Assembly: GCA_003605065.1 (NCBI GenBank)
Contig: QZJM01000063.1
Location: forward strand, 12,485 to 76,484
From: Dethiobacter sp.
Lineage (GTDB): Bacteria; Bacillota; Dethiobacteria; DTU022; UBA8154
Direction: 5' to 3'
Length of the DNA stretch: 64,000 bases
Shown: positions 12,825 to 61,823 of the stretch, in pieces
Position numbering within the stretch: position 1 is the stretch's first letter
How the letters are laid out: each line of letters opens with the position of its first letter
Made by a program: the position numbers and the translations under genes
The notes under the pieces: model-generated
What the model was told of the DNA's origin: nothing
Database searches by the model: none
Seen by the model: only the letters and a program-made list of their open reading frames with translations

Positions 12825-12845
12825 GGATAGCGTTACGAAGCTTTT

Positions 12846-43277: not shown

Positions 43278-43958
43278 ATGTCTGAAGAAAAACAAAAAGA
43301 ACTATTTGAGAGGTTAAAGCAAGGGGTTATCAATTATGATGAGGAAGAAGTAGCCAGCGCAGCCAAAACGGTCTTAGAAGAAGGGATTGATGCTGTAAAG
43401 GCGGTCTTTGAAGGCCTGGTGCCGGGTATGGAGCATGTTGGAGAACTGTATGAACAGCAGGAATATTTTGTTCCTGAACTTTTAATGTGTGCCGATGCCA
43501 TGTATGCCGGTCTCGATATCTTAAGGCCCCATATGTCCAAAAAAGACCTTGGCATTACAGGAGTTGTTGTCATGGGTGTTGTCCAGGGGGATGTTCACGA
43601 TATCGGCAAAAATATCGTCAGGATGATGTTCGATGTAGCCGGTTTTGAAGTACATGACTTGGGACGCGATGTTCCCCTGGAGGTTTTCGTGGAAGAGCAG
43701 CTTCGTACCGATGCCGATCTGGTTTGTTTGTCAGCGATGATGACCACCACCATGGTAGGGATGAAAGATATTATTGCCCAGATTAAAGCCAAAAACCCTA
43801 ACGCCAGGATTATGATTGGCGGCGCTCCTGTAACAGAAGAAATCGCCGAGAAGTTTGGAGCTGATGGTTATGCTGAAGATGCCAGTAATGCTTTGAAAGA
43901 CGCTATTAAAATGTTGAGCACGCTTAAAAAAATTCAGGAAGAAGCAGAAACAGCTTAA
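43278..43958 (+). CDS. cobalamin-binding corrinoid protein (methyltransferase cognate corrinoid protein)
   Basis: DxHxxG motif (GDVHDIGKN) plus a B12-binding Rossmann domain. 226 aa. Confidence 0.9.
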   Translation: MSEEKQKELFERLKQGVINYDEEEVASAAKTVLEEGIDAVKAVFEGLVPGMEHVGELYEQQEYFVPELLMCADAMYAGLDILRPHMSKKDLGITGVVVMGVVQGDVHDIGKNIVRMMFDVAGFEVHDLGRDVPLEVFVEEQLRTDADLVCLSAMMTTTMVGMKDIIAQIKAKNPNARIMIGGAPVTEEIAEKFGADGYAEDASNALKDAIKMLSTLKKIQEEAETA

Positions 43959-43989
43959 AGCAGAAATTGTTTTTTAAGGAGGAAACACG

Positions 43990-45933
43990 ATGGGGCACAC
44001 CGTTATTTTTCAGCCTTCCGGCAGGCGTGGCATTGTTGAAGCCGGAAAGAATCTTCTCGAGGCGGCACGCGAGCTGGGGGTGGATATTGAATCTCCCTGT
44101 GGGGGGTCTAAAGTCTGCGGTAAGTGTAAAGTAAAAATCGAGGAAGGGTTTTTTGAGAAATTTGGTATCGAATCCAGAATGAGCAGTCTTTCGCCCACGA
44201 TGGAAGAGGAGAAAGACGAACTGGAGAAGCAGGAATTGGAGAACAACTACCGGTTAGCATGTTGTGCCGAAGTCCAGGGAAATATCCTGGTTTTTGTCCC
44301 TGAAGAGTCCCGGGGTGCGCAGCAGGTGATCCTGGAAACCGGAAGAGAGAGGGAGATCTCTGTAGATCCTGCTGTCCGAAACTTTTATATTGAAATGGTC
44401 CCTGCAACTCTTCATGATCAGACCGACGATTTTGTTCGTATCAAGAATGCCCTGGAGGAAAAGTATGGACTTAAAGACATCGAATATATTGACTATCCTG
44501 TGGTTGTAAATCTTCCCGAGACTATTCGTTCTGCTAACTGGAAGGTGACGGTCAGCATCTGGAAAGGATGTGAAATAATCAAGGTTTCCTCCGGGCTGGT
44601 GGAAAACCCCTGGGGAATTGCCATTGATGTGGGCAGTACCACAGTGGCGGCTTACCTCTGTAATCTAAGGACTGGTGAATCTCCCGTGAAAAAATCCATG
44701 ATGAATCCCCAGATTACCTATGGGGAAGATGTCCTTTCCCGTATAACCTATACGATGATGAATGAAGACGGGCTGGAGAAAATGAGCAGGGCGATTATTG
44801 GAGGTATTAATTCTCTTGTAAAGGGGATTACAGAGGAGGCAGGTTTAACCCCGGAAGACATAATTGATATGGTTCTTGTGGGCAATACGGCTATGCATCA
44901 TCTTCTCCTGGCTATTGATCCCAAATATGTCGGTCGTGCTCCTTTTGCACCGGCGCTAAAATGCGGTATTGATTTCAAGGCGCGCGATCTCGGCATAAAC
45001 ATTAATAAAAATTCGTATGTGCACTGGCTGCCCATTGAAGCAGGTTTTGTCGGTGCGGACAACGTTTCGGTGCTCATTGCCGAGGAACCATATAATCAGG
45101 ACAAGATGATGCTGGTTATAGATATCGGTACCAATGGAGAAATTGTTTTCGGCAACAGGGAAAAGCTTTTTTCAACATCCTGTGCAACAGGCCCTGCCCT
45201 GGAAGGAGCACAGATTGCCTTTGGTATGCGTGCCGCTCCTGGGGCTATTGAATGGGTAAAGATTGATCCGGAAACGAAAGAGCCACAATTTAAAGTTATC
45301 GGTCAAAATGACTGGTATAAAGAAGGTGACGAACCCCTGGCTAAGGGGATTTGTGGCTCCGGTATCATTGACGTTATTGCGGAAATGTTTAAGGCCGGGG
45401 TTATTGAAAAATCGGGCCGTATTAACCAAAAAATCGACAGCCCCAGAATTCGTAAAAAGGCCGACGGTAAAATGGAGTATGTGCTCTGTTATGCCCATCA
45501 AACTTCCATAGGAAAGGATATTACTGTTACACAGGGAGACGTCCGTGCTGTGCAGCTGGCCAAAGCAGCTCTCTATTGTGGTGCTGAGTATCTCATTGAA
45601 AAGCGCGGCATGGAAAAACCGGATCAAATTGTGCTTGCAGGTGCTTTTGGCAGCTATATTAATAAGGAAAGCGCCATGGTTATGGGCATGATTCCTGACT
45701 GTGATCTGGACAATGTCCAGGCGGTGGGGAATGCCGCCGGTGACGGAGCCAAGCTGGCTCTCTTGAGCATGCAAAAACGCCGGGAAGCTGAGACAGTAGC
45801 CAGGTTTGTGGAGTTTATTGAAACAGCTACAGAACCAGATTTCCAGCCCCGGTTTGCGGAAGCTATGGCTTTTCCCCACAGAAGCCACCTATTTCCCAGC
45901 ATCCAGCATATTCTTGATAAAATTCCCAAGTAA
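43990..45933 (+). CDS. corrinoid activation/regeneration protein (RACo/RACE-like: N-terminal 2Fe-2S ferredoxin plus ASKHA ATPase domain)
   Basis: CGG..CGKC plant-type 2Fe-2S motif at the N-terminus. 647 aa. Confidence 0.8.
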   Translation: MGHTVIFQPSGRRGIVEAGKNLLEAARELGVDIESPCGGSKVCGKCKVKIEEGFFEKFGIESRMSSLSPTMEEEKDELEKQELENNYRLACCAEVQGNILVFVPEESRGAQQVILETGREREISVDPAVRNFYIEMVPATLHDQTDDFVRIKNALEEKYGLKDIEYIDYPVVVNLPETIRSANWKVTVSIWKGCEIIKVSSGLVENPWGIAIDVGSTTVAAYLCNLRTGESPVKKSMMNPQITYGEDVLSRITYTMMNEDGLEKMSRAIIGGINSLVKGITEEAGLTPEDIIDMVLVGNTAMHHLLLAIDPKYVGRAPFAPALKCGIDFKARDLGININKNSYVHWLPIEAGFVGADNVSVLIAEEPYNQDKMMLVIDIGTNGEIVFGNREKLFSTSCATGPALEGAQIAFGMRAAPGAIEWVKIDPETKEPQFKVIGQNDWYKEGDEPLAKGICGSGIIDVIAEMFKAGVIEKSGRINQKIDSPRIRKKADGKMEYVLCYAHQTSIGKDITVTQGDVRAVQLAKAALYCGAEYLIEKRGMEKPDQIVLAGAFGSYINKESAMVMGMIPDCDLDNVQAVGNAAGDGAKLALLSMQKRREAETVARFVEFIETATEPDFQPRFAEAMAFPHRSHLFPSIQHILDKIPK

Positions 45934-45983
45934 TTGGATTTTTAGATTTCGGATTAAAAAGAAAACAAAGGTGGGTACGTAAG

Positions 45984-46928
45984 ATGTTTACCATAACAAA
46001 AGAACAAAAGGTTTGCCAGATTGGCCCTTGGACGATTGGCGGGCAGCCGGGCGATAATCCTCCGCTGTTGATTGCCTCCATGTTTCATAAAGGCGATCGC
46101 ATCCTGGAAAAGCGGAAGGAAGGAAAATTCGATCGCGTAAAGGCGGCTGACTACATCAAACGGCAGGAGGAGCTTTCTGAACAGACAGGGATCCCTGCTC
46201 TTACTGCCATGGTGGCCAATTCTGCCGATGAGATGAAGCGCTATATAGATTTTTACACCGGGTTGAGCAGTAAGCCCTTTGCCGTTGACATGTGGATGCA
46301 GGACCCTCGTGTTGAAGCTGTAAAATACGTCGCGGAGCTCGGCTTAACTGACCGGCTCCTTTATAACAGCATTACTCCCTGGGATAAGGATATTCCCGGA
46401 CAGGTGGCCATGCTTAAAGAGCTGGGTGTCAAGCATGTTGTTGTCCAGGTCTATGATGATAATGATCCTACTCCACAGGGAAGGGTTTCCAGTTTTCGCA
46501 GGATGATGGATATGATCGGTGAGGATAATTTTGAAACGATCCTGGTGGATACCTCCGTGATGAACCTGCCTGCTACTTCCTTTTCGTCTGTGGCAAACAG
46601 GTTAATTAAGGAAGAATTCGGGGTTCCGGTAGGCCTGGCTTCATCAAACGGCACTTTTATGTGGAAGGCGGCCCGCGAAATGTGGGGAGACGAAGGCTTT
46701 TCCTCCATGAACGTGGCGGGGCAGGCAGTGGCGACTATGTTCTGGTGTGATGCCATCTTTTACGGGCCGCAGGTTATAGCACCGCGTGTTTTCCCCGCGG
46801 TGGTAAGTGCAGCGTTAATGCTGGCCACATTTGTTTACCAGGAAACAAACAGTTTGCCATCCAATCCCAATCACCCCCTGTATAAATTTTTCGGAGACTT
46901 TGTGGAAAAGTTGAAGGCCGGTAAATAA
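45984..46928 (+). CDS. MtrH-family methyltransferase (methylcobamide:tetrahydrofolate/pterin methyltransferase, MT II type)
   Basis: 314 aa. Overall resemblance to tetrahydromethanopterin S-methyltransferase subunit H homologs used as MT II in bacterial O-demethylases. Confidence 0.7.
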   Translation: MFTITKEQKVCQIGPWTIGGQPGDNPPLLIASMFHKGDRILEKRKEGKFDRVKAADYIKRQEELSEQTGIPALTAMVANSADEMKRYIDFYTGLSSKPFAVDMWMQDPRVEAVKYVAELGLTDRLLYNSITPWDKDIPGQVAMLKELGVKHVVVQVYDDNDPTPQGRVSSFRRMMDMIGEDNFETILVDTSVMNLPATSFSSVANRLIKEEFGVPVGLASSNGTFMWKAAREMWGDEGFSSMNVAGQAVATMFWCDAIFYGPQVIAPRVFPAVVSAALMLATFVYQETNSLPSNPNHPLYKFFGDFVEKLKAGK

Positions 46929-47063
46929 AAAAAGGAAAGGTAAAAAATCAGTGGCTAAATTTGACAGACAACGGGTTCAGGAATTAACTAATGTATCTGG
47001 TTCCTAAAAGAATAGCAACGTAAATAGTGATAAATTAAAAAAATCAATAGGGTGGTGCGATAA

Positions 47064-48134
47064 ATGACTTTAACATCAAAAGAACGGGTATTAAACCAGC
47101 TACAGGGCAAGGAGATAGACCGGGTGCCCTGCTACAGCGGGATGGGCAATGTTACAGTAACGGGGTTGAAACAACTGGGCTACAGGTTCCCCCATGTGCA
47201 CAGCGACGCCGAAAAAATGGCCAAACTGGCGGCTACTTCATACAAGCTGTTTGGCTATGAGTGCGCTGTGGTTCCCTTTGATTTCTGCCTGGAGGCAGAA
47301 GCGCTGGGTTGTGTGATAAATCCTTACGAGGATGTAGAGCACCTTCTTTACCCTACCATCAAGGAGAAAGCTATACACAGCGAGGCGGAGATGGCCACTT
47401 TTCCCGTCCCGGAAGACTTAGAAAATGTTGGCCGGGTTCCTGTAGTAGTCGAGGCCATCCGGCGTTTGAAAGAGGATATCGGAGATAAAGTAGCTGTGGG
47501 CACATATTTCACTGCCCCCTTTACTTTGGCTGGTCAAATTTTTGATCTGGACCAGCTCTTTAAGCTATCCTTCAAAAAACAGGATCTTGTTGGCCAAATG
47601 CTCGACAGGCTCGCCGATGTCCTTATCGAACTGGGTAAAATTTATCGTGATGCCGGGGCCGATTATATTAACGTGCGTGAAATGGGGGCAACGACGGATA
47701 TCTTAAGTCCCCGCAGCTTTAAATCCTTGATTTTGCCTCCTCTCCAGAAAATTCATGCCGCGTTAAGTGCTTTAGGAATTCCCAATATCCTGCACATTTG
47801 TGGAGCGACTAATGCTATTGTTCCACTTATGATTGAAGCTGGTGCTGATGCTATTACCGTTGAGGTTAAAAACAATATGCTGAAAACAAGGGAAGATATT
47901 GGTTTTGAACCACTTGTTTTCGGCAATCTTGATGCTTATAAATTATTTGTCCATGACAGCGTGGAGGATGTGGAAAAAGCTGTTATAACTGCTCTGGAGC
48001 AGAGTGTCGACGCTATATGGCCCGGCTGCGATATCTGGCCTGAGGCCAAGCCGGAGAACTTTAAAGCTATGGTCGAGGCTACGGAAAAATATGGCGCGGA
48101 AAAATGGGTGCGCAAACAAAAGTCCGCATCGTAA
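47064..48134 (+). CDS. uroporphyrinogen decarboxylase (URO-D) family methyltransferase (MtaA/MtbA/OdmB-like MT I)
   Basis: 356 aa. URO-D fold signatures (ERVLNQLQGKEIDRVP..). Confidence 0.8.
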   Translation: MTLTSKERVLNQLQGKEIDRVPCYSGMGNVTVTGLKQLGYRFPHVHSDAEKMAKLAATSYKLFGYECAVVPFDFCLEAEALGCVINPYEDVEHLLYPTIKEKAIHSEAEMATFPVPEDLENVGRVPVVVEAIRRLKEDIGDKVAVGTYFTAPFTLAGQIFDLDQLFKLSFKKQDLVGQMLDRLADVLIELGKIYRDAGADYINVREMGATTDILSPRSFKSLILPPLQKIHAALSALGIPNILHICGATNAIVPLMIEAGADAITVEVKNNMLKTREDIGFEPLVFGNLDAYKLFVHDSVEDVEKAVITALEQSVDAIWPGCDIWPEAKPENFKAMVEATEKYGAEKWVRKQKSAS

Positions 48135-48163
48135 TGTCATAAATTATGGAGGAGGTAAATAAA

Positions 48164-49192
48164 ATGTCGGCAATGACTGCAAGGGAACGTTTTTTAAACA
48201 AGCTGGCAGGAAAGGAAACTGATCGTGTTCCTGTTTTTTGTGCTGATCAAACGGGAACTTATGAACAGATGGATAACTTACGGTCTTTTTGGCCGGAAGC
48301 CCATCAGAAGGCCAAAGAAATGGCCGGGCTGGCCCTGGGCGCCTTTACTGTTGCGGGCTTTGATGCTGTAAGAGTTCCGTTCTGCCAGACAATTGAGGCC
48401 GAGGCACTGGGAGCGGGCATAAAATATGCAGGAAAAGAGGGGATCCCCAGTGTTAACGTCCACCCCTACAAGCTGGGTGAGCCTGTCGGACCTCTTCCGG
48501 AGAATTTTTTAGAACGGGGCAGAATACCGGAATTAATTGAGGCGGTAAGGATCTTGAAACGTGAAGTGGGGGATCAGGCTGTTATTATTGGCGGCATCAT
48601 TGGGCCTTTCAGTATTGCCGCCAGCCTGATTGGTATTACCGATATTTTGAAGGCAGCTTTTAAGACCCCGGAAAAGGTTAAACCTTATCTGGACCTTGCC
48701 GGGGAAGCGGGAACAACTTTAGGAAAAGCCTTAATCGAAGCCGGAGCGGATTTGATCTGTGTTGAGGATATGATGGCCTCTATGGATATGATTAGCCCCA
48801 AAATTTACAGGGAACTGGTGGCTCCCTGGGAAACAAGGCAAAATGCCGCTTTATCCGTGCCCGTTATTCTTCACATTTGTGGAAAGACCGATATAATTAT
48901 TGACGATATGGCCAATACAGGAGCCAGTATACTCAGTGTCGAACCAAAAGTTGATGCACCTGCTGCTAAGGAAAAATTAAAAAAATACGACCGCTTTATT
49001 CCTCTAATCGGTGGTGTGGATGCCGTAACAACACTCTTTTCCGGCAGCGAGGAAGAAGTTGTACAGGAGACGATTAAAGCTATCAATCAGGGTTACGACA
49101 TGATTGCACCCGGTTGTTCCATCGCTCCTGGCTCCCCTGTCGTTAATTTACGGGCGATGATCAAAGGCGCTACCCTGGCAAAGGAACAGTAA
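48164..49192 (+). CDS. URO-D family methyltransferase, paralog
   Basis: ATG at 48164 after GGAGGAGG. ARERFLNKLAGKETDRVPVF parallels the upstream paralog. Confidence 0.8.
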   Translation: MSAMTARERFLNKLAGKETDRVPVFCADQTGTYEQMDNLRSFWPEAHQKAKEMAGLALGAFTVAGFDAVRVPFCQTIEAEALGAGIKYAGKEGIPSVNVHPYKLGEPVGPLPENFLERGRIPELIEAVRILKREVGDQAVIIGGIIGPFSIAASLIGITDILKAAFKTPEKVKPYLDLAGEAGTTLGKALIEAGADLICVEDMMASMDMISPKIYRELVAPWETRQNAALSVPVILHICGKTDIIIDDMANTGASILSVEPKVDAPAAKEKLKKYDRFIPLIGGVDAVTTLFSGSEEEVVQETIKAINQGYDMIAPGCSIAPGSPVVNLRAMIKGATLAKEQ

Positions 49193-49271
49193 AATAGGCC
49201 CGGTGTTAAAATAAATATCCGCAGTCTTTTCAGCGAAAAACATCACCTTTTTATTTAGTATAATTTCTGGC

Positions 49272-50009
49272 ATGGGAAAGAGCTGTGGAGAACGGGTGAT
49301 ATTTGTGAGAGTTAAAATTCCGTATCCATTTTTGGACTTTGAAAATTTGGATTTACAGATTAAAAAAATGGGTGCTGATCTGGTGGGATTTGGTGATGTG
49401 AGTTCCGGCCTTGCTCCTGAATTTTCTCATATTCCCAAAGCCATTGCCCTTGGCATTAAGTATCCGGTATTTGAGGTAGATATTAATAAACCAAATTGTT
49501 TTTTGGAACGGTGCTTTTCCATCGATAAGCGTTTGCAGGAGATTCAGAAAAAAGTTGCGGCAATTTTAAGAAATAACGGCTGGCGGGCGTTGCTAATCCC
49601 CCCGGACTCTCACCGGGAAATCTCCAGTTTTATTGCCAGGTTGTACCATTTATTTCCTCACAAAACAGCAGCTACTTGCTCCGGGCTTGGCTGGATCGGC
49701 AAAAACGGGCTGTTGATCAGTCAGGAATTCGGGCCGCGTTTGAGCTGGGCTACAGTTTTAACGGATGCACCCCTTTTGCTAACCCCTTATCCTATTACTA
49801 TCAGCCACTGCGGTAATTGCCGCTATTGTGTGGACGCCTGCCCGGCTGGAGCCATTCGTAACGTTCTCTGGGAGCGGAAGAACAGTTATGAACCTTTAAT
49901 TGATGTACAGCGCTGCTTTGCCCAGTTGCAAAAAAACCAGGAACTCTACGGGCATTTTTCCTGTGGGGTTTGCGTACTGGTTTGCCCGCAGGGTATATCA
50001 CAAAAGTAA
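49272..50009 (+). CDS. QueG-like (epoxyqueuosine reductase-like) 4Fe-4S protein
   Basis: GLGWIGKNGLLIS..FGPRLSWA and two Cys clusters (CGNCRYCVDACP; CGVCVLVCP) resemble the QueG C-terminal region. The ORF is shorter than canonical QueG. Confidence 0.55.
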   Translation: MGKSCGERVIFVRVKIPYPFLDFENLDLQIKKMGADLVGFGDVSSGLAPEFSHIPKAIALGIKYPVFEVDINKPNCFLERCFSIDKRLQEIQKKVAAILRNNGWRALLIPPDSHREISSFIARLYHLFPHKTAATCSGLGWIGKNGLLISQEFGPRLSWATVLTDAPLLLTPYPITISHCGNCRYCVDACPAGAIRNVLWERKNSYEPLIDVQRCFAQLQKNQELYGHFSCGVCVLVCPQGISQK

Positions 50010-50061: not shown

Positions 50062-50090
50062 TTGACAAAATTAACTTTACTTTATATAAT
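50062..50090 (+). promoter_or_regulatory. consensus sigma-A promoter TTGACA-17-TATAAT upstream of the cobalamin riboswitch
   Basis: TTGACA at 50062..50067, 17-nt spacer, TATAAT at 50085..50090. Confidence 0.55.
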
Positions 50091-50179
50091 TAAAGACAAC
50101 ATAAACTTTACTGTTACTAAATATTTTAACACTTAGAGTTGTTAATAAATATGTTAAATATACTTGGTAATGATTCGGG

Positions 50180-50336
50180 TGCTTCTCTTTCACCTGGAGA
50201 AGATAATAGGGAACCAGGTGTAATTCCTGGGCGGTCGCGCCACTGTGAAGGGAGAGCTTATTTCAGAAAGGTCACTGGATAAAATCCGGGAAGGCAGAAA
50301 TAAGCTATGACCCCAAAGTCAGGAAACCTGCCCGTT
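50180..50336 (+). promoter_or_regulatory. cobalamin (B12) riboswitch
   Basis: AATAGGGAACCAGGTGTAATTCCTGG, B12 box GCCACTG (50239..50245), CCGGGAAGGCAG, and AGTCAGGAAACCTGCC all match conserved blocks of the cobalamin riboswitch. Confidence 0.85.
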
Positions 50337-50423
50337 TCATAGTACATAAAAAAACCTTCTTCGCGTTAAGGGAGGGGTAATTAACATATTAAAACTCGCG
50401 CGGATAAGGTGGTATTATTTAAA

Positions 50424-50667: not shown

Positions 50668-51006
50668 ATGCCTCTTAAAAATGTTATAGAAGCCAAAAAG
50701 CAGAAAGGGGAAAAAATTGATAATAAAGTAAGATATATCCAGAAACATAAACCCATATTTTCAGTGCTTGAAAAAATTAAGCTTTGGCCTTCAAGTTCAG
50801 GTATCTTACATGGTATTAAACATTTAACCAGGGATGGCAATTATATAGTAATTGAAACACATTGTCATGAGCAGATAAAGGTAAGGATATCAAAAAACAG
50901 CCGAGCTGCAAGGTGGCTGAGGAACAAGTGGGCTGAAAGGGTATGTACTGTTTGTCGTATTCCGTCCTGGAAAGTTAATAAGTATCTAAATACATCGTTT
51001 AAATAA
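50668..51006 (+). CDS. pylSn: pyrrolysyl-tRNA synthetase N-terminal tRNA-binding domain protein
   Basis: 112 aa. Matches the bacterial PylSn free-standing domain. Directly precedes pylSc. Confidence 0.85.
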   Translation: MPLKNVIEAKKQKGEKIDNKVRYIQKHKPIFSVLEKIKLWPSSSGILHGIKHLTRDGNYIVIETHCHEQIKVRISKNSRAARWLRNKWAERVCTVCRIPSWKVNKYLNTSFK

Positions 51007-51018
51007 GTGGAGGCATTA

Positions 51019-51834
51019 ATGAAGTTTACTCATGTGCAAATACAACGTCTTATTGAACTTGGTTTAAATACCGGCCTTGAGTATGAATTTGCCAATAGTA
51101 TTGAAAGGGAAGCAAATTTTAAGCAACTGGAAAAAGAACTAGTCAAACAAAACAAAGCTGCATTAAAAAGATTGCATGAAGAGAAACGTCCTTTGCTTAA
51201 AACTGTAGAACAAAAACTTATTGGTGTTTTAACTGAAAATGGATTTATTGAAGTAATCACACCTATTTTAATGTCCAGGGGCTTGCTGGAAAAGATGGGA
51301 TTAACTCCTGAATTATTTCGACAGGTGTTTTGGGTTGATGAGGGGAAAAAAAGGTGCTTGCGCCCAATGCTGGCTCCTCATTTATACTACTTGTTAAGAA
51401 AAATGAAAAAAATATGGCCTGCTCCCCTGAAAATATTTGAAGTTGGACCGTGTTTTCGCAAGGAGTCAAAGGGAGGGTACCATATGGAAGAATTTACCAT
51501 GTTGAATCTGGTGTGCTTTAGCTGTACTGAACCCCTTGCTGAGTTGCTGGATCTGGCTGATAAACTGCTTGACCCTTTTAATATACCATTTAACATTACT
51601 GATGAGTATAGTGAAGTTTACGGCCGGACGATTGATATAGTAGTAAATGATGTAGAAATTGCTTCTGCCGCGGTTGGCCCGCATGAGCTTGACAAAAACT
51701 GGGATATTACCGGCAGCTGGTATGGAATCGGTTTGGGATTGGAACGTTTGGCTATGGTTCTCCAGGGGTATCAAAATATAAGGCGCGTGAGCAGGAGTTT
51801 AAGTTACCAAGATGGGGCCCGCCTTAATATTTAG
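51019..51834 (+). CDS. pylSc: pyrrolysyl-tRNA synthetase catalytic domain (class II aaRS core)
   Basis: Class II motifs (FRKESKG..; GIGLGLERL). ATG at 51019 after GTGGAGG. Stop is TAG. Confidence 0.9.
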   Translation: MKFTHVQIQRLIELGLNTGLEYEFANSIEREANFKQLEKELVKQNKAALKRLHEEKRPLLKTVEQKLIGVLTENGFIEVITPILMSRGLLEKMGLTPELFRQVFWVDEGKKRCLRPMLAPHLYYLLRKMKKIWPAPLKIFEVGPCFRKESKGGYHMEEFTMLNLVCFSCTEPLAELLDLADKLLDPFNIPFNITDEYSEVYGRTIDIVVNDVEIASAAVGPHELDKNWDITGSWYGIGLGLERLAMVLQGYQNIRRVSRSLSYQDGARLNI

Positions 51835-51867: not shown

Positions 51868-52980
51868 ATGCCGGACGAAAAATTTCCTGTTGAGAATTTC
51901 ACAAGAAAGGCTTTAATGAAGCAGCCGTTAACTGCCTCGGAAATTGCGGCCCTGGTTTACCTGCGTGATGAAGGGCAAATTGCCAGGCTTAAAAAGGGTG
52001 CCTGCCAGATCAGAACACAATTTTTTGGCAATCATGTTTTCCTTTACGGGTTTGTTTATTTTAGCACATATTGTCGAAACCTTTGCTCATTTTGTAATTA
52101 TGCGGCGAAGAATAAGATGAACAGGTATCGCAAATCAGTTCAGGAGATACTGGCAGTATGCAGAAGCCTGCAGTTCTCAGGAGTTCATCTTATTGATCTG
52201 ACCATGGGAGAGGACCCTCATTATTTAACACATGAAGGTGATGCTCTCCTGGAACTGGTTAAATTTGTTCGCTCCCAGGTAGATTTGCCGCTAATGTTGT
52301 CACCGGGAGTTATCGGAGAACATTTGCTTGAAAGCCTGGCTGAACTTGGAGTGGCCTGGTATGCCTGTTATCAGGAAACCTATAATCCTAATTTATTTCA
52401 ACAGCTAAGGGTGGGGCAAAGTTTTACCAGGCGTTTGGGGGCGAAACAGAAAGCCAGAGAAGCTAACCTGCTGGTAGAGGATGGGATGCTGTTGCATCTC
52501 GGAGAGAGTGAACAGGATATTATTTCTTCCATTCTCGCTATGCAAAGACTCGGAGTTCACCAGGCCAGGGTTATGGCTTATGTTCCTCCGGAACCTAACG
52601 GTCTACCTAAAAGGCGCTCTCACAACCTGGAAGAAGAAACGGTTATCGCCATTTTGCGCCATGTTTTTCCGGACAGATTGATTCCCGCGTCACTGGATAT
52701 AGAAGGTTTAAAAGGTCTCTCTTCCCGCTTGAAGGCCGGAGCCAATGTCGTTTCTTCCATTATTCCCCCCATGACCGGGCTAAGGGGAGTATCTCAAACT
52801 ACCCTTGATATTGATGAGGGGAGAAGGACTGTGGAAAACGTCAAAGAGGTGTTGAAATCGCTGAATTTGGAAGTTGCACCTTTAAGTATGTATTTTGCCC
52901 TGGTGCAGCGTTTTAGAGAGGAACAAAGAATGGGAACTATGGGGAATATAGGGGAAGAAAGGGTAGGCTTGCTTCTATGA
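51868..52980 (+). CDS. pylB: methylornithine synthase (radical SAM lysine mutase)
   Basis: FSTYCRNLCSFCNY radical-SAM cluster motif. Close overall match to archaeal PylB. Confidence 0.9.
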   Translation: MPDEKFPVENFTRKALMKQPLTASEIAALVYLRDEGQIARLKKGACQIRTQFFGNHVFLYGFVYFSTYCRNLCSFCNYAAKNKMNRYRKSVQEILAVCRSLQFSGVHLIDLTMGEDPHYLTHEGDALLELVKFVRSQVDLPLMLSPGVIGEHLLESLAELGVAWYACYQETYNPNLFQQLRVGQSFTRRLGAKQKAREANLLVEDGMLLHLGESEQDIISSILAMQRLGVHQARVMAYVPPEPNGLPKRRSHNLEEETVIAILRHVFPDRLIPASLDIEGLKGLSSRLKAGANVVSSIIPPMTGLRGVSQTTLDIDEGRRTVENVKEVLKSLNLEVAPLSMYFALVQRFREEQRMGTMGNIGEERVGLLL

Positions 52981-53861
52981 CAAGGTTAAAGCAGGAAAAT
53001 TTACTCTCTCTCGATCTTAGGAAATATGATTGTGAACTGGAGGAAAAAGCCGGGAAGACTTTGGCTCAGCTTGTTCAGGAAGGGGCGGGCTTAACTCAAC
53101 CCCTGGAAATGTTTACAAAGGAAAAAGCAGCAGTTATACCGATTACTGCAGGCCTGGGAATAATTACAGGTTTTACTGCGGCAGTGGAATCAATACTTAA
53201 GCATGTGGGTCTTAATGTTAAACTGACGGAAAACACAGATATGGCAGGAATAAGTGAAGCTCTGGACTGGGGTGCAAATCTTCTCTTTTGTGCTGATGAC
53301 AACATCTTTTTCGTGCTGGATATGCTTAGTGGTAGCTATGTTGATAATGCCCTGGCTACAGCGGATATGTTTATGTTTGCGATCAACAAGCTGGCTGATG
53401 GTCTCCAGGGGAAGAGCACTTTGATTGTAGGCCTGGGTAAAGTTGGTAATGCCTGCTTGCTATCTGCTTTGCAGAAAGGTGCAAAAGTGTACGTTTATGA
53501 TAAATTGCCGGAGCATTGTGTAACCGCTGCCCGTAAGTATCCAGGTGTATCCCCGGTAAAGGAATCATTAATGAATGCCTGCCGGAAAGCGCAGGTAATT
53601 ATTGATGCTTCCCCGGAAGGAAGTTTTATCAGGGATGAGTGGTTGTCAGATGATGTGGTAATCGGGGCACCCGGTGTGCCGCTCGGTTTGGAGGAAAAAG
53701 CATATAAACGGCTGTTTAAAAGAGTTATTCATGATTGTCTTCCCCTGGGGGTTGCCGGTATGGTTGCCAAAGTTTTCTCCCAGCGGAAAGGACTTAACAA
53801 GTCTGTAAGAAAGAAGGTGGGATATGAGCAAGTGGTAACAGCACTCGGCAGGCTTGACTAA
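52977..53861 (+). CDS. pylD: pyrrolysine synthase (NAD-dependent dehydrogenase)
   Basis: LIVGLGKVGNACLLSALQKGAKVYVYD Rossmann motif paralleling the archaeal PylD region. 4-nt overlap with pylB. Confidence 0.85.
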   Translation: MTRLKQENLLSLDLRKYDCELEEKAGKTLAQLVQEGAGLTQPLEMFTKEKAAVIPITAGLGIITGFTAAVESILKHVGLNVKLTENTDMAGISEALDWGANLLFCADDNIFFVLDMLSGSYVDNALATADMFMFAINKLADGLQGKSTLIVGLGKVGNACLLSALQKGAKVYVYDKLPEHCVTAARKYPGVSPVKESLMNACRKAQVIIDASPEGSFIRDEWLSDDVVIGAPGVPLGLEEKAYKRLFKRVIHDCLPLGVAGMVAKVFSQRKGLNKSVRKKVGYEQVVTALGRLD

Positions 53862-53963: not shown

Positions 53964-55133
53964 ATGAGTAAACGGCATCTTCTGTTTCTGGTCTCCGGAG
54001 TTGTTGCCTTGCTGGTTTTAAGCACTACCGCTTTCGCCCAGGAAGTTACCCCTCTTGCTGAACAGCTTTTCCGCTATCACCGCGGGCAGGACATCTTTTT
54101 TATGTTCATGCTGGTGGCATTTCTGATGTTGTTCATCAAACGCTATGAGTGGGGCGTTTGTTTGATGACAATGCTGATCATATCGGTTGCCTTTCCTTTC
54201 TATTTTGCAGTGCAGACAATTTATTTTGGCAATGCCTGGAATATGGATCTGATTATCCTGGGAGTAGTCTGTGCCATTACCCTGGTAATCTCTGCAGGTA
54301 TGTTTCTCGGCCAGGTTAAAACATGGCAGTATATAATTATTGGATTATTATTTGTTATCGCTTATTCCATTAATGAATGGTTTCTTTTTACCTACCTGGA
54401 AGGAGTTGCTGATATGGGCGGCAGCCTTCTGGTCCATGCTTTTGCAGCCTACTTTGGCTACGGGATGATCTTGTCGTTACGGCATAAAAAGATCATGGAT
54501 GCTCCCATGAAAGTAACGGTCCACAGCGTTTCTTTTGTCTGGCTGGCATCCATGTTGCTATGGATGCTCTGGCCATCATTTACAACTGCGCTGCTTGCAC
54601 CGGACCAGGTAATCGGCGGTATGCTTGCCACTTACATGGCCTTAATGGCTTCCACTGTGATAACTTACCTGGTGCTTCTGGCAATCCATAAAAAAATCGA
54701 TCCTTTAGTTTATACCTATGCCATCCTGGCTGGTGGGGTAGCTATTGGCTCTACGGTTGATCTTGTCGGGCCGTGGGCTGCTTTTGCTATAGGACTGCTG
54801 GCCGGCATTGTTTCCTCCCTGTGCTTTGTTTACCTGCATCCTACCCTTGAAAAAGTACTGGGTGTTCGTGATGTAATGGGTGTACACAACCTGCATGGTG
54901 TTCCAGGAATTCTTGGTGCTCTTTTTGCTATTCCTTTTGCCGGAGCCATACAGGTTACAGCTGCAGTAGGGACATTTGTAATAGCAATAGTTACCGGACT
55001 GGTTGCCGGGTTGATTATGAGAGCTTTCGGAAGAAACGAGGAATACATCCTAGACGATGCTGAAAGCTTCTCCATGGAAGACGCCAGGGGCACTGAAAGC
55101 GTTTCCATAGGAGAATCAGGTATTTCTGTATAA
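53964..55133 (+). CDS. Amt/MEP/Rh-family ammonium (methylammonium) transporter with N-terminal signal peptide
   Basis: Signal peptide ..TTAFAQEV. 11 predicted TM segments. Amt signature region VDLVGPW..GVHNLHGVPGILGALF. Confidence 0.8.
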   Translation: MSKRHLLFLVSGVVALLVLSTTAFAQEVTPLAEQLFRYHRGQDIFFMFMLVAFLMLFIKRYEWGVCLMTMLIISVAFPFYFAVQTIYFGNAWNMDLIILGVVCAITLVISAGMFLGQVKTWQYIIIGLLFVIAYSINEWFLFTYLEGVADMGGSLLVHAFAAYFGYGMILSLRHKKIMDAPMKVTVHSVSFVWLASMLLWMLWPSFTTALLAPDQVIGGMLATYMALMASTVITYLVLLAIHKKIDPLVYTYAILAGGVAIGSTVDLVGPWAAFAIGLLAGIVSSLCFVYLHPTLEKVLGVRDVMGVHNLHGVPGILGALFAIPFAGAIQVTAAVGTFVIAIVTGLVAGLIMRAFGRNEEYILDDAESFSMEDARGTESVSIGESGISV

Positions 55134-55208: not shown

Positions 55209-55280
55209 GGAGGGTTGATCGGCAGGATCACGTAGACTCTAAATCTGCGCAGCCGGGTTTGACTCCCGGACTCTCCTCCA
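55209..55280 (+). tRNA. pylT: tRNA-Pyl (anticodon CUA), encodes CCA
   Basis: GGAGGGT..ACTCTCC 7-bp acceptor stem. 6-bp anticodon stem CGTAGA/TCTGCG with loop CTCTAAA. A single nucleotide separates the acceptor and D stems. Short variable loop. T-arm CCGGG-TTTGACT-CCCGG. These are all hallmark pylT features. Confidence 0.85.
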
Positions 55281-55368: not shown

Positions 55369-56014
55369 GATGAGTAAAGAAATTCTGGCCAAATTACAAC
55401 GTGCTGTCGAAGAACAGGATGTGGAAGCCGCTGAGGCTGCGGCCCGTGAAGCAGTTGCCGCAGGGATCGATCCCTTTGTGGCTATCAACGAGGGCCTATC
55501 TCCCGCTATGCAGACCATTAGTGATCTGTTTGATGACGGAGAACTGTATGTGCCCCAGATTTTGTTTGCGGCAGAGGCTTTTATGAATGCCATGGCTATC
55601 CTGACAGAAAAGCTTTCGGCAGAAGAAGTAAGCAAAACTAAGCGCGGCAAAGTTATCGTGCATACAGTCCAGGGAGATATCCATGACATCGGAAAAAATA
55701 TTGTCGGCACAATGTTAACAGCCAACGGCTTTGAAGTAATTGACCTGGGCCGCGATGTTCCGATTGATGTGGTTGTGGAGAAAGCAAAAGAGCTCGGAGT
55801 AGACATGGTTACCGGTTCGGCGCTTATGACCACCACTATGCCATCCCAAAGGGATATTGTTAAGGCACTCGACGAAGAAGGTATCAGGGGAAAAGTCAAA
55901 TGCATGTTTGGTGGTGCCCCGGTTACTAAGGAGTGGGTCGACCAAATCGGTGCCGATGGTTATGCAAGTAACGCCTCTGAAGCGGTAATTGTAGCGAAGG
56001 AACTTATGGGTTAA
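55369..56014 (+). CDS. mtmC: monomethylamine corrinoid protein
   Basis: GDIHDIGKNIV DxHxxG motif. Strong similarity to archaeal MtmC across the full length. RBS GGAAGGAGG. The ORF-track start at 55259 overlaps pylT and is rejected. Confidence 0.9.
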
Positions 56015-56042: not shown

Positions 56043-57422
56043 ATGTCTAATGTTCCCAAGGTTGGGGTATTTGAAGCCTATGCCAGGGCAACTACAGGAC
56101 CACGCGTCCCTGAAAAAGACTGGGACTACAAAATCATTCCCCAGGCCGCCAGCCGCCTGAAGGAAAAATACGGCATCAAAATGGATAAAAGGAAGATGAT
56201 TCCCACAGATGAAAATCTAATAAACAATCTCTTCAGGGCAGGCATGGAAATGCTGGTGGAATGTGGAGTTTACTGTATGGATACTGGGCGGGTTATCAAG
56301 TACACCGAAGAAGAAGTCTGGACGGCCGTTAAAAATGCCCCCAGGTGTTTAACGCTCGGTGAAGGCCGTGATTCAAGAGAACTCAAAGGGCGCAGGTATG
56401 ACGACAGCAGGCCGCCTATCATCCAGGGGGGACCTACCGGAGCACCGGTAGCAGAGCAGGACTTTGTAGCCATGCACGAAGCCTATGCCCGTGAGCCGAT
56501 CGTCGATACCATTGTTGACGGTGTTATGCAGACGATCAATGGCTACGATCCGAGGCCTAACACCCCCTTCGAAATTGCGGCGGTCAAGAACGAAGCGATG
56601 ATGATTAGACTGGCACAGGTCCGTGCCGGTCGCCCGGGGATGGGATTGTAGGGCAACGAAACTTCACTCAGTGCCGCAGGGGTTATCGCTGCTGATTTTC
56701 CCGGCGGCATGAGGGCATCAGATAGCCATGAAGTTTCCCAGCTGAACGAGCTGAAGATAGATGTAGGTGCACTATCTTTTGTTGCTCACTATGTTTTGGC
56801 TGGAGATATCATCATGTGTGAACAGATGCCCATCTTGGGAGGCTATGCAGGTGGTCTGGAGGAAACGACCATTGTTGACGTTGCCACCACGCTGAATGCC
56901 TTCCTAATGACACAGGCGCACTGGCATCTTGATGGCCCGATCCATGTGCGGTGGGGGATTACCACGGCCAGAGAAGTGCTGGCGGTAGCCGGCCACTGTG
57001 CACGGGCAATCGAGGAAAATACACATTTACTTCTTGGTAACCAGTATTATACATTGGCCGGTCCCTGCACGGTAATGTGCCTGTTGGAAACGGCAGCCCA
57101 GTCTATCACCGATACAGCCAGCGGCCGGGAACTTGTTTCCGGGGTAGCCTCGGCCAAAGGAGTGGCCACAAACTATACTACTGCCATGGAAGCCCGCTTC
57201 ATGGGTGAAGTGGCCCATGCTGTAGCCGGGATGGATTTAGAAAAGGTTAACGGGATTCTTGATGAGCTGGTAGGTATGTACGAGACCCAGTACAAGACAG
57301 CTCCCAAAGGAAAAACTTTCAATGAGTGCTATGATCTTGTCAGGTTGACTCCTTCTGACGAGTACATGCAGGTTTATAAAGAGGCGTGGGGGATTTTAAA
57401 TAAACTCGGCCTCAAGTACTAA
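56043..57422 (+). CDS. mtmB: monomethylamine methyltransferase with in-frame UAG (56649..56651, codon 203) decoded as pyrrolysine
   Basis: Two same-frame ORFs (56034..56651 and 56709..57422) are separated only by TAG. Flanking sequence ..GMGL-UAG-GNETSLSAAG.. and ..DSHEVSQLNELKID.. matches archaeal MtmB around its Pyl codon. pylT and pylSBCD are in the same locus. Confidence 0.9.
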
Positions 57423-57523
57423 GGGCCAGGGGTAAGATGCAGCAGCCTGTACCCCGGTCCGCTTTCTTGGGCCGGGGTACAGGGTATTTTGTTTACGTAA
57501 TTAAAAAAAAGAGGAGAAGAACT

Positions 57524-58720: not shown

Positions 58721-58737
58721 AACAGACGGGAAAAAAC

Positions 58738-58976: not shown

Positions 58977-60173
58977 TTGAACGTGGGTGTTCTGGGAGGT
59001 GGATTACAGGGTCTGGAGGCGGCTTATCTTCTTAAAAAAGCCGGTCACAGGGTTTTGATGCTTGAAAAGAGGCCACATGCTCCTGCTCTGGGGTTGGCTG
59101 ACGAAAAGTTTTGTTTTAACCTTACAGCTACCTGTCAACAGGAACTGCTAGATTTTTTAAAGAAAGTTGATGTAATTATTCCCGCTACGGAAAATAAAAC
59201 CACCCTTGTGGTTATGAATGAGGCGGCGAAAAGATATGCCAAAGTTTTCTGCTTTGATTCCCAGGCATATGAGCTAAGCAGCAGTAAAAGCCTGTCCAAT
59301 AAGCTTTTTTCTCAGCTGGCACTGCCCAGGCCTATTCCCTGGCCGGATTCCTCTTTCCCCTTAATAGTAAAACCGTCTGAGGAAAGCGGAAGCCGCGGTG
59401 TAAAAATTGTTTTTAACCAAAATGAACTGGATAAGGTCCTAACCGAAGAAAAACTGTATAAAGGCGGTTTTATCATTGAGGAATTTCTGGAAGGTCCTTC
59501 ATATTCCATAGAGGTGGTTACAATAAACGGTGAAGGTTTCGCTTTTGAAACAACTTTGCTTGGTTTTGACGAGCTTTTTGACTGTAACAGGGTTATTGCC
59601 CCCAACGGGTTAGATGAAAAGAGTAATAAAGAAATGCAGGAAATGGCACTGCGTATCGCGCAGTCCTTAAAGCTTACAGGTATCATGGATCTGGAAACTA
59701 TTTTACATGAAGGAAAGTTTAAAGTGCTGGAAATTGATGCCCGTTTGCCGAGTCAAACACCTACTGTTGTCTACAAGGCAACAGGCCTGAATCTGGTTTC
59801 TTATTTATTGTCGTCATTTCTTCACAAAGATTTACCGGGGGTAGAAGCAGGTGCAAAAAGAGCTGTAATTTATGAACATCTTTATTTTTGTGACGGCATG
59901 GTCTTTTTCCCCGGAGAACATATCATCACCTCCTGTAAAGAAAATCTTTTTTATATGGAGGATTTTTTTGGTGCAGACGAAGCCATTACGAACTGTGTGG
60001 AAAAAAAGGAGCAAAAATCCTGGGTTGCTACTGTTATCATAACGGGCCACAACCTGGAACAGGCCCGTACCAAAAGAGAATATATGCTGAAAAGGATTTT
60101 AGAAAAATACCGGGCTGAATTATTTCCTTCTAAAAATATCGAGAAAACTGCAGTAAAGGGAAGAAAAAGTTAG
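58977..60173 (+). CDS. pylC: pyrrolysine biosynthesis ATP-grasp ligase (3-methylornithine--L-lysine ligase)
   Basis: ATP-grasp. ..LEIDARLPSQTPTVVYKATGLNLV.. closely parallels archaeal PylC. TAG stop. Confidence 0.9.
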   Translation: MNVGVLGGGLQGLEAAYLLKKAGHRVLMLEKRPHAPALGLADEKFCFNLTATCQQELLDFLKKVDVIIPATENKTTLVVMNEAAKRYAKVFCFDSQAYELSSSKSLSNKLFSQLALPRPIPWPDSSFPLIVKPSEESGSRGVKIVFNQNELDKVLTEEKLYKGGFIIEEFLEGPSYSIEVVTINGEGFAFETTLLGFDELFDCNRVIAPNGLDEKSNKEMQEMALRIAQSLKLTGIMDLETILHEGKFKVLEIDARLPSQTPTVVYKATGLNLVSYLLSSFLHKDLPGVEAGAKRAVIYEHLYFCDGMVFFPGEHIITSCKENLFYMEDFFGADEAITNCVEKKEQKSWVATVIITGHNLEQARTKREYMLKRILEKYRAELFPSKNIEKTAVKGRKS

Positions 60174-60185
60174 GGAGGCTTGGAG

Positions 60186-61823
60186 ATGAACAAAATTGGT
60201 ATTGCCCTGGATTTGGGGACCAGCGGTTTTCGAGGACAGGCCATCGACTTGTCTGCGAATGCGGTTTTAAAAACAGTAATAACTGCCCGTCATCCCCTGC
60301 CTGGCGCAAACGTGATGGATCATCTCAACTTTGCCATTATGGCTGGGCCGGATGTAGCTCACCAGATCATCATGGCTACAATAAACCAGATTATAGATCT
60401 GCTAAATATGCCCGGTTTCGCCATTGAGTGTTTTGCCGTTTGCGGCAACCCGATTCAACTTTCCCTCTTTGAAAATATTGAAATCAGGGATTTGGCCTAT
60501 GCGGGTGAAAATTACCGCCGCCAGCTGGGGATTGTCTCTCCTGATCGCAGCAGCAAGGAATACCCGGCTGAGCGGTTTCCACTGTTAAACTTACCGGGGA
60601 ATTGCCTGGTTTTTATTCCCCCTGCTGTAAAACATGAAATAGGGGCAGATGCTCTGGCCATGTTGATTCTTTCCGGAATTCTGGATAAGGAAGAAATTTG
60701 CCTGGCTACCGATTACGGGACAAATGCTGAAATGGCTCTGAAAGTGGGAGATAAAATCATTACCGGTTCTGCCGCTGCCGGCCCTGCTCTGGAAGGACAG
60801 CATGTTGAGAACGGGATGCTGGCTGCACCTGGGGCCATTTCTGACCTCCGACCGGAAAACGGCGGCTACCGTTGTCTTGTTCTCAATACTGAGATGCAGC
60901 CTGAGGACGGAGATTTACTTACTCTTGACAATGGAACTGTACTTCAAAAGGGCCGGTTAGAGGCCAAAGGAATAACCGGAACGGGTGTAATAGCAACAGT
61001 TTCACAGGGTATGGACAGCGGCCTGGTAAGCCTTCCCAATATTAAAACTGCTAGCGGCTCACTGCATCTTTCCAACGGGATTCGTTTTAGTAAGAAGGAC
61101 TTAATCGAAGCCGGGAAGGCTATCGGCGCAATCCGGGCCGGTTACCTCACACTGGCCGCTGAGGCAGGAGTCTCTGTAGAAGATATCCGTGTTGCTTTTA
61201 TGGCCGGTGCATCGGGAACTTATGTGGATGCACGTAAAGCGATGAACATCGGCATGGTTCCTCCTAAGGTAAAGGAAATATATCAGGTTGGTAATACTTC
61301 CTTGTTGTTGGCAAGAGAAATTGTGCAGGATCCCCGGAGATTAAAAACTCTTGATGAAATTGCCCGACAGTTACGGGCAAGACATTGTATGTTTGGTCTT
61401 TCCAAGGTTTTTGAAAAGGCTTATTTGCTGGAGCTTTCATACTGGACGGAAGGCCTCCCATGGGAACTTTATAAAAAATACGCCAGAATGTACCAGCTTC
61501 CGGAGTTGCCGCAGCTTCACACCGATGTAAATGTTACTAAAAAGGTCACCCGTGATATAAGGGATATTGGGAAAGATGGCTTGATCACCATAGAGAGAGT
61601 CGGTGAAGAAAGACACTGGTTTGTACCCGGGTGTGTCAACTGTGGCCAGTGTGTAGAAGAATGCCCTGAAAATGCTATAAAGCTCGATGATACTCTGGGC
61701 GTTGTGATGCGCATGGACTGCTGCAGTGGAACTGCCTGCCAGCGCTGTGAGCATATTTGTCCGGAAAAAGTTTTTCGTCTTTCAGAATTTTGGATGAACT
61801 CTTTAAAAATTAGCTGTGATTAG
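60186..61823 (+). CDS. ramA: RamA-like corrinoid reductive activase (ASKHA ATPase plus C-terminal 2x[4Fe-4S] ferredoxin domain)
   Basis: ATG at 60186 after GGGAGG. C-terminal CVNCGQCVEECP and C..C..CQRCEHICP clusters. Confidence 0.8.
   Translation: MNKIGIALDLGTSGFRGQAIDLSANAVLKTVITARHPLPGANVMDHLNFAIMAGPDVAHQIIMATINQIIDLLNMPGFAIECFAVCGNPIQLSLFENIEIRDLAYAGENYRRQLGIVSPDRSSKEYPAERFPLLNLPGNCLVFIPPAVKHEIGADALAMLILSGILDKEEICLATDYGTNAEMALKVGDKIITGSAAAGPALEGQHVENGMLAAPGAISDLRPENGGYRCLVLNTEMQPEDGDLLTLDNGTVLQKGRLEAKGITGTGVIATVSQGMDSGLVSLPNIKTASGSLHLSNGIRFSKKDLIEAGKAIGAIRAGYLTLAAEAGVSVEDIRVAFMAGASGTYVDARKAMNIGMVPPKVKEIYQVGNTSLLLAREIVQDPRRLKTLDEIARQLRARHCMFGLSKVFEKAYLLELSYWTEGLPWELYKKYARMYQLPELPQLHTDVNVTKKVTRDIRDIGKDGLITIERVGEERHWFVPGCVNCGQCVEECPENAIKLDDTLGVVMRMDCCSGTACQRCEHICPEKVFRLSEFWMNSLKISCD

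Follow-up and report, generated by a model that had tools for sequence, protein, structure and literature searches.

An Rh50-type channel in the pyrrolysine-methylamine island of Dethiobacter sp. belongs to a clade tied to methylamine catabolism and is a candidate methylamine importer

We examined a 64-kb window of Dethiobacter sp. DNA (contig QZJM01000063.1 of assembly GCA_003605065.1, positions 12,485 to 76,484 of the forward strand) in which a 389-aa open reading frame (ORF) with an ATG start lies between pylD and the pyrrolysine (Pyl) tRNA gene pylT. Its product is an Rh50-type channel within the ammonium transporter superfamily, not an Amt/Mep protein, and the gene adds one more member to an already described clade whose link to methylotrophy was already known. 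Across that clade we found the Rh gene beside genes of two unrelated methylamine pathways, and on balance, if narrowly, this gene context leads us to favour a role for the channel in importing methylamine, with NH3 perhaps exiting through the same pore. The ORF and its predicted leader are:

53964..55133, + strand: Rh50-type channel, 389 aa, Rh50_prok_meth clade (PF00909, TIGR00836 score, match to Nitrosomonas europaea Rh50 (NeRh50), AlphaFold (AF2) model with Foldseek comparison, neighbour-joining (NJ) tree)
53964..54038, + strand: predicted Sec signal peptide, residues 1-25, cleavage after AFA (read from sequence features)

The ORF encodes an Rh50-type channel with conserved pore residues

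The ORF, whose coordinates agree exactly with those of an earlier sequence-only reading of the window, has AGGAG 9 nt 5' of its ATG, and its product is identical to a protein on record for a Dethiobacter sp. metagenome-assembled genome (MAG; P0001). That reading had called it an Amt/MEP protein, a label that holds at the superfamily level, where residues 45-326 match Pfam PF00909 (Ammonium_transp) with 123.8 bits (E 1e-35, cut-off 23.2 bits), but not at the subfamily level, where the protein is of the Rh50 type and scores 77.6 bits on the NCBIfam Amt model TIGR00836, below its cut-off of 343.3 bits. The top match in a PDB sequence search was NeRh50 (E 3e-56); human RhCG and RhAG matched at E 7e-41 and E 6e-38, and the best Amt-type match (E 2e-11) ranked behind these Rh-type matches.

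An AF2 monomer model built on 56 homologues (predicted local distance difference test, pLDDT, 90.3; predicted template-modelling score, pTM, 0.89) consists of an N-terminal helix at residues 2-19 and then 11 transmembrane (TM) helices. When compared with Foldseek, the model aligned to NeRh50 (3B9W) with a template-modelling score (TM-score) of 0.85/0.91 and a root-mean-square deviation of 1.5 Å, as against TM-scores of ~0.70 and 17-19% identity for AmtB-type structures. All Foldseek matches belonged to the Amt/Mep/Rh family, with Rh before Amt, the same order as in the sequence search. The sequence-only reading had also proposed a cleavable signal peptide, and Sec-type features are indeed present: the N-terminus, MSKRHLLFLVSGVVALLVLSTTAFA followed by QEV, is built like a Sec signal peptide, with n, h and c regions and an A-x-A motif (K3 and R4, then a hydrophobic segment covering residues 6-19, then A-F-A in positions -3 to -1), and helix 2-19 of the model precedes TM1, predicting a leader of residues 1-25.

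Pore residues were compared using the numbering of an E. coli AmtB sequence that agreed with PDB 9cs5 at essentially every residue. AmtB D160, H168, W212, F215 and H318 align to D150, H158, W203, F206 and H311 of the window protein, and these five positions, which include the twin-His pair, the conserved Asp and the inner Phe, are invariant in 81/81 clade members. The S1 site is absent as in Rh proteins, with a gap opposite AmtB W148 and L210 in place of S219. The inner gate Phe is kept (F206), while the outer gate Phe (AmtB F107) is replaced by V102, a position occupied across the clade by Ile in 35 members, Phe in 30 and Val in 16. The pore chemistry of the family is thus intact and the channel is expected to work, and by analogy with the rest of the family we expect the protein to assemble as a homotrimer.

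Two pore features were considered as proof of substrate and set aside. A Phe-to-Val change at the position of AmtB I28 would seem to widen the pore, but it is paired with, and offset by, an Ala-to-Ile change where AmtB has I110. Only members linked to mtm genes have lost the outer-gate Phe, and none of the 17 members linked to the N-methylglutamate (NMG) pathway has done so.

The channel belongs to the Rh50_prok_meth clade

A clade search over 1.84 billion cluster representatives returned only two high-scoring full-length clusters at 50% identity (407 and 331 bits), the next scoring 233 bits at 41% identity. In an NJ tree of 81 clade sequences, NeRh50 and 20 other Rh50 sequences, the clade stood apart from NeRh50 and all other sampled Rh50 in 99/100 bootstraps. 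The protein lies in a clade distinct from nitrogen-regulated amtB, a point that the sequence-only reading had suggested checking. Because the published members Acetohalobium arabaticum, Citricoccus, Methanosalsum and Methanomassiliicoccus group within it, we equate the clade with Rh50_prok_meth (Matassi 2017). Members recovered here span Bacillota, Dehalococcoidales, Actinomycetota, Gammaproteobacteria, Methanosarcinales and Methanomassiliicoccales.

Gammaproteobacterial NMG-linked members were placed with Methanosalsum (100% bootstrap) and nested in Methanosarcinales (92%), and the mtm-linked members from Firmicutes grouped with actinobacterial NMG-linked members and Halanaerobiales at 98%. 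Since mtm- and NMG-linked members interleave in the tree, the gene has moved between pathways at least twice and follows methylamine use, not one pathway or lineage. We propose that the clade is small and horizontally mobile, with members dedicated to methylamine catabolism.

Two cluster representatives that are unplaced, P0122 and P0123, nest inside the clade near archaeal members and are divergent (39% and 34% identical to the window protein). P0123 (locus L092) has a low-complexity, eukaryote-looking N-terminus and would fit the Trichomonas vaginalis paralogues, which have been placed among methanogens (Matassi 2017, PMC5209957).

Clade members lie beside genes of two methylamine pathways

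A genome scan with one genome per species yielded 80 loci, which were probed with proteins of the window and with NMG pathway proteins from a Pseudonocardia locus; the 46 of them that are flanked by at least 3 kb on each side form the informative subset. We found mtmB at most 3.5 kb from the Rh gene at 46/80 loci (31/46 informative loci) and gmaS at most 0.6 kb from it at 17/80 (12/46 informative). Six of the 80 had only a corrinoid protein beside Rh, five of them on truncated contigs, and the one informative case was Natroniella, with the order mtbB(Pyl)-mtbC-Rh. The other 11 had no methylamine neighbour; nine were truncated and two were informative (a Methanimicrococcus and a Desulfatibia MAG). 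Methylamine-gene linkage was therefore seen at 44/46 informative clade loci compared to 0/4 Rh50 loci outside the clade (hypergeometric chance of all four controls falling among the six unlinked loci ~6e-5), which ties the clade strongly to methylamine catabolism.

The mtm-linked Bacteria include Peptococcaceae, Syntrophomonadaceae, other Bacillota and Dehalococcoidales, and the mtm-linked Archaea include Methanolobus, Methanosarcina MAGs, other Methanosarcinales, and dozens of Methanomassiliicoccales and Methanomethylophilaceae. Actinomycetota show the order gmaS-Rh-mgsABC with mgdABCD nearby, in genera including Pseudonocardia, Citricoccus, Micrococcus, Nesterenkonia, Yaniella and Enteractinococcus, and two Gammaproteobacteria (Methylonatrum kenyense and an Ectothiorhodospiraceae MAG) carry mgsABC-gmaS-Rh. 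The start of the Citricoccus Rh gene overlaps the stop of gmaS. Among membrane protein genes, only Rh recurred in the ±10 kb around the 80 loci.

In Methanomassiliicoccales, Methanolobus and Methanosarcina MAGs, the Rh orthologue directly follows mtmC-mtmB. Methanolobus sp. WCC5 has mtmC-mtmB-Rh-mtbA, and its adjacent mtbC-mtbB ends in an APC permease, the MtbP-like gene of Methanolobus being confirmed as AA_permease_2. MtmP is said to have been described by Burke et al. in 1998 as an APC-type permease. The order in M. mazei is mtbA-mtmC-mtmB-mtmP (PMC7465815). The view that archaeal operons use unrelated permeases thus applies to the Methanosarcina mazei/barkeri type with mtmP, but not to the Rh-bearing Methanolobus, Methanosarcina MAGs and Methanomassiliicoccales; with Rh orthologues following mtmCB in archaea, the bacterial gene is not an analogous solution unlike that of archaea but part of a shared, horizontally mobile module.

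Several individual loci deserve description in their own right. At the A. arabaticum locus we expected mtmB beside Rh and found only a 27-aa mtmB relic. This 27-codon ORF (CP002105, L001 9918-10001; MTDADYHLDGPIHIRWDITTAINRRSD) lies just 5' of Rh, overlaps the Rh start and resembles an internal stretch of MtmB, the counterpart in the window MtmB being HLDGPIHVRWGITTA; its sequence suggests the remnant of a neighbouring mtmB that was lost, or else an mtmB-derived leader peptide. A MAG labelled Desulfovibrio sp. (DeMMO6_36, L007) has the gene order of the window, with proteins 78-98% identical, and a short mtbB remnant (PYLIS_2 match at 7350-7449, where a full gene would not fit); its taxonomic label is probably wrong, or the contig mis-binned. 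Two Dehalococcoidales MAGs (L031 and L043) carry a complete Rh-mtmC-mtmB cluster with pyl genes, those detected being pylB, pylSn and pylSc in L031 and pylB, pylSn, pylSc, pylC and pylD in L043. In a Peptococcaceae relative (L010), mtbC-mtbB with PYLIS_2 lies between Rh and mtmCB at 11259-13367 and an mttB PYLIS_3 lies further on, so that Rh heads a combined methyltransferase region for monomethylamine (MMA), dimethylamine (DMA) and trimethylamine (TMA). At L009 a PYLIS_2 match (3911-4010) lies 5' of mtmC-mtmB-Rh.

Eight loci (L049, L050, L051, L058, L061, L063, L085 and L086) are Rh-mtmC-mtmB-pyl clusters in human-gut bacterial bins, assigned to Bacteroides ovatus, Eggerthellaceae, Bifidobacteriaceae, Lachnospiraceae, Acutalibacteraceae, Faecalibacterium, Dialister hominis and Prevotella hominis. 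Their Rh genes branch among Methanomassiliicoccales/Methanomethylophilaceae, and the contigs are probably mis-binned archaeal ones.

The window holds a complete monomethylamine gene set

On the + strand of the window the genes run pylSn-pylSc-pylB-pylD-Rh-tRNA(Pyl)-mtmC-mtmB, and the placement that the sequence-only reading gave to the Rh gene, inside a Pyl-methylamine operon between pylD and pylT/mtmCB, was confirmed by family models for the neighbours, ARAGORN and the PYLIS_1 element. The features of the region are:

43278..50009, + strand: upstream methyl-transfer genes (Pfam annotations)
50062..50090, + strand: perfect sigma-70 consensus promoter-like site, TTGACA-17-TATAAT (12/12 positions, consensus scan)
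50160..50349, + strand: cobalamin riboswitch aptamer 5' of pylSn (Rfam RF00174, 122.7 bits, gathering 31.5, full length)
50668..51006, + strand: pylSn (TIGR03912, 107.7 bits)
51007..51834, + strand: pylSc (TIGR02367, 278 bits)
51868..52980, + strand: pylB (TIGR03910, 404.5 bits)
52977..53861, + strand: pylD (TIGR03911, 202 bits; PF21455)
55209..55280, + strand: tRNA-Pyl, anticodon CUA (ARAGORN)
55370..56014, + strand: mtmC, methylamine corrinoid protein (TIGR02370, 252.9 bits; both B12-binding domains)
56043..57422, + strand: mtmB, monomethylamine methyltransferase, with in-frame UAG (Pyl) at 56649-56651 (PF05369, 735.7 bits across the stop)
56649-56748, + strand: PYLIS_1 element in mtmB (91 bits)
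57446..57483, + strand: terminator-like 16-bp GC-rich hairpin with T-rich tail, 24 nt after the mtmB stop (consensus scan)
58977..60173, + strand: pylC (TIGR03909, 384 bits)
60180..61823, + strand: ramA, reductive activase of methylamine corrinoid protein (TIGR04270, 753 bits)

The window contains a complete Pyl-dependent MMA set (mtmB with its in-frame UAG, mtmC, ramA and pylTSBCD), and the Rh ORF encodes the sole membrane protein of the methylotrophy island at 41.5-62 kb. The upstream genes at 43278..50009 encode a corrinoid protein, a RACo-type activase, an MtrH-like methyl-tetrahydrofolate methyltransferase, two URO-D/MT2-type methyltransferases and a ferredoxin.

Our consensus scan found no convincing terminator between pylD, Rh and pylT, and for this reason we treat Rh as one unit with pylT/mtmCB; the Rh-pylT/mtmCB intergenic sequence folds no better than its shuffles (z -1.2). 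The unit that we infer would comprise the promoter, the riboswitch, pylSn-Sc-B-D, Rh, pylT and mtmC-mtmB. A cobalamin riboswitch is also present in the close relative L007 (87% identical, at 1363-1559). As pattern matches, these elements point to control by corrinoid supply, not by nitrogen status.

A B12 switch heading genes of a B12-dependent pathway and of pyrrolysine synthesis is unusual, as is the split of the pyl genes, in which ~5 kb containing Rh, pylT and the mtm genes parts pylC from pylB and pylD. A small ORF (50424-50561) lies between the riboswitch and pylSn. After mtmB, a DUF2284 ORF (57437-58087, 216 aa as listed) begins inside or before the hairpin at 57446-57483; calls of this gene on sister contigs begin later (187 and 206 aa), and its true start is probably 3' of the hairpin. 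DUF2284 follows mtmB in the relative L010 too. Between DUF2284 and pylC, at 58220-58959, lie two ORFs (166 and 73 aa) without a Pfam match.

Import of methylamine is weighed against release of ammonia

Methylamine has a pKa of ~10.6, so that more than 99.9% is cation at neutral pH and needs a carrier, and GmaS is the methylamine-capturing enzyme of the NMG pathway. We infer the channel's substrate and direction of transport from several considerations, each of which argues for import. The Rh gene sits where the import permeases mtmP and mtbP are found elsewhere; these clusters hold no other candidate carrier; the Citricoccus Rh start overlaps the stop of gmaS; the Natroniella Rh gene adjoins mtbBC, a step that frees no NH3; and, methylamine being cationic at neutral pH, electrogenic transport would be driven towards the inside. 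NeRh50 transports 14C-methylammonium and behaves electrogenically in proteoliposomes (review, PMC10433425), and the substrate and mechanism of Rh50 are still debated (2023 review, PMC10433425).

As an importer, the channel would conduct monomethylamine or methylammonium across the membrane to MtmB, which would methylate the MtmC corrinoid, kept reduced by RamA; the upstream MT2/MtrH-type enzymes would then pass the methyl group on, and the same Rh pore may let the product NH3 leave. The family mechanism, in which the cation is recruited and loses its proton and the amine crosses in neutral form, whether or not a proton path runs in parallel, is expected to apply because the twin-His pair, Asp and inner Phe are intact. 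More tentatively, and with our doubt slightly the stronger, a member of this clade could be the first Amt/Mep/Rh protein with an organic amine as its physiological substrate, and the clade a horizontally moved uptake module shared by both methylamine pathways. The two unrelated pathways so served would be the Pyl/corrinoid MtmBC route of anaerobic bacteria and methanogens and the NMG route of aerobic Actinomycetota and Gammaproteobacteria.

Several points weigh against import. The Pyl/MtmBC and NMG pathways each release one NH3 per methylamine consumed, and because both do so one for one, the linkage fits an inlet and an outlet equally well. Many hosts are alkaliphiles (Dethiobacter, Natroniella, Methanosalsum, Methylonatrum and Nesterenkonia natronophila), and a high external pH leaves much methylamine uncharged, which could then enter without a carrier. 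A clade-wide comparison of pore residues revealed no change clearly making room for a methyl group, and co-transcription of Rh with the pyl and mtm genes is predicted solely from consensus scans. The sequence-only reading's "strong candidate" for MMA import is therefore upheld in part: clade linkage and the standing of Rh as sole membrane protein of the island speak for it, but linkage leaves the direction of transport undecided.

These points bear on the possibility that the channel is mainly a product outlet, which would release NH3/NH4+ from MtmB or the NMG pathway and guard the cell from ammonium build-up while methylamine enters by diffusion, as alkaline habitats would allow, or by another carrier. 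In TMA, DMA and MMA breakdown, NH3 is released at the MMA step only. The linkage to that step suits an outlet, and for the same reason we dropped linkage to the MMA step as an argument for import. Release is also the published reading (Borrel 2014, PMC4153887; Matassi 2017, PMC5209957), and animal Rh proteins excrete ammonia (PMC10433425). However, if the channel is electrogenic as NeRh50 is (PMC10433425), the inside-negative potential would oppose NH4+ exit, and most ammonia-producing microbes lose NH3 by diffusion without a dedicated channel. An outlet is also hard to reconcile with a gene at the place of mtmP and mtbP and, in Natroniella, after mtbB-mtbC, where no NH3 is released, and it would presumably be of little use to cells that run the NMG pathway to acquire nitrogen. 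We consider a mainly releasing role unlikely, although it deserves to be taken seriously.

Ordinary ammonium uptake for nitrogen assimilation, with the gene in the island by chance, would be the family's default function, and Rh50 is the only family member in some hosts, such as Ca. Methanomassiliicoccus intestinalis (Matassi 2017, PMC5209957). The sequence-only reading had asked whether an adjacent glnK is absent, and we addressed this with E. coli GlnB and AmtB probes validated against PDB. The GlnB probe detected no glnK/glnB homologue in the 64-kb window at E<=10 (best match E 0.92) and no P-II homologue in the 1.27 Mb flanking 88 related loci at E<=0.01, and the AmtB probe found no Amt-type gene in the window or around the related loci. 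The missing glnK, the position of 44/46 informative loci beside methylamine genes compared to 0/4 for other Rh50, the predicted control by a cobalamin riboswitch common to the pyl/mtm genes in place of a nitrogen signal, and the fact that a methylamine-degrading cell makes its own ammonia together render plain ammonium uptake improbable.

Least probable of all is a methylamine/ammonium sensor like Mep2 or Ks-Amt5, or a CO2/CH4 gas channel: sensor family members exist (6eu6) and gas passage has been raised for Rh proteins (PMC10433425) and for this clade (PMC5209957), but the 389-aa protein has no fused or adjacent signalling domain and is modelled as a bare 11-TM core with a short tail, its twin-His pore is intact, CO2 passage through Rh50 is considered improbable (PMC10433425), and acetogen-type hosts consume CO2 where the aerobes produce it, leaving no common logic.

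Relation to earlier work and implications

The novelty implied by the sequence-only reading is reduced by earlier reports of the linkage of Rh50 to methyltransferases in methanogens, interpreted as ammonia or gas export. Borrel 2014 (PMC4153887) noted that ammonium transporters adjoin the monomethylamine genes of Methanomassiliicoccales and might export ammonium, and listed putative DMA and TMA transporters for this group but none for MMA. Matassi 2017 (PMC5209957) described the clade and its methyltransferase neighbourhood and speculated on release of NH3, CO2 or CH4. A literature search, with most subscription journals outside its reach, found no paper proposing methylamine import by the Rh50 clade, and within the same scope we did not find the place of the clade in actinobacterial NMG clusters noted.

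The physiological role of prokaryotic Rh proteins is open, and a clade that extends across two domains and two unrelated methylamine pathways offers a concrete, testable role; the NMG extension and the breadth of the linkage strengthen the case that this role is methylamine-specific. The import reading would name a likely MMA entry route for Pyl-using bacteria, gut Methanomassiliicoccales and NMG actinobacteria, for which the sources consulted name no MMA permease. If it is true, Rh would fill the place of the missing monomethylamine permease in gut Methanomassiliicoccales, which in the human gut are of interest for trimethylamine removal. The clade-specific residues also provide a natural experiment on ammonium versus methylammonium selectivity in the Amt/Mep/Rh family.

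Comparison with known systems

The window protein shares its superfamily, a predicted signal peptide and the twin-His, Asp and Phe pore residues with the AmtB-GlnK system. It differs in being only 17-19% identical to AmtB-type proteins (TM-score ~0.70), in failing the Amt hidden Markov model cut-off, in lacking the W148/S219 S1 site and in having no glnK nearby. In marine Rhodobacteraceae, an 'amt' gene recurs in TMA/DMA/MMA (NMG) clusters together with gmaS/mgs/mgd, much as Rh does in the present clade (Zecher et al. 2020, PMC7574528); these genes carry the bare annotation amt, and the likeness is one of annotation.

NeRh50 (3B9W/3BHS/3B9Y) is the closest structural counterpart, with the same fold, 11 TM helices, N-terminal leader, twin-His, Asp and inner Phe, and it likewise lacks an S1 site. 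However, it is 34% identical to the window protein and lies on a separate branch of the tree, and genes of the NeRh50 kind do not adjoin methylamine genes. The outer gate Phe is V102 in the window protein, and some 15 residues fixed throughout the clade are different in other Rh50, for example V51 versus Phe, I105 versus Ala and A161 versus Gly, as well as W193 versus Met, Y252 versus Asn and M305 versus Cys.

Rh of the window clade holds the position of mtmP, at the end of mtmC-mtmB, and has the same proposed job of supplying MtmB. The two belong to unrelated families, MtmP being reportedly a secondary carrier of the amino acid/polyamine type and Rh being channel-like. The nearest relatives remain the published Rh50_prok_meth sequences (Matassi 2017, BMC Evol Biol 17:2), which lie, like the window gene, beside methylamine methyltransferases. 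That clade comprised 8 sequences from 6 species, whereas the set assembled here has a wider taxonomic span, with members from Actinomycetota and Gammaproteobacteria inside NMG clusters, and the published functional guess was export of NH3 or gas, not the import of methylamine that we favour here.

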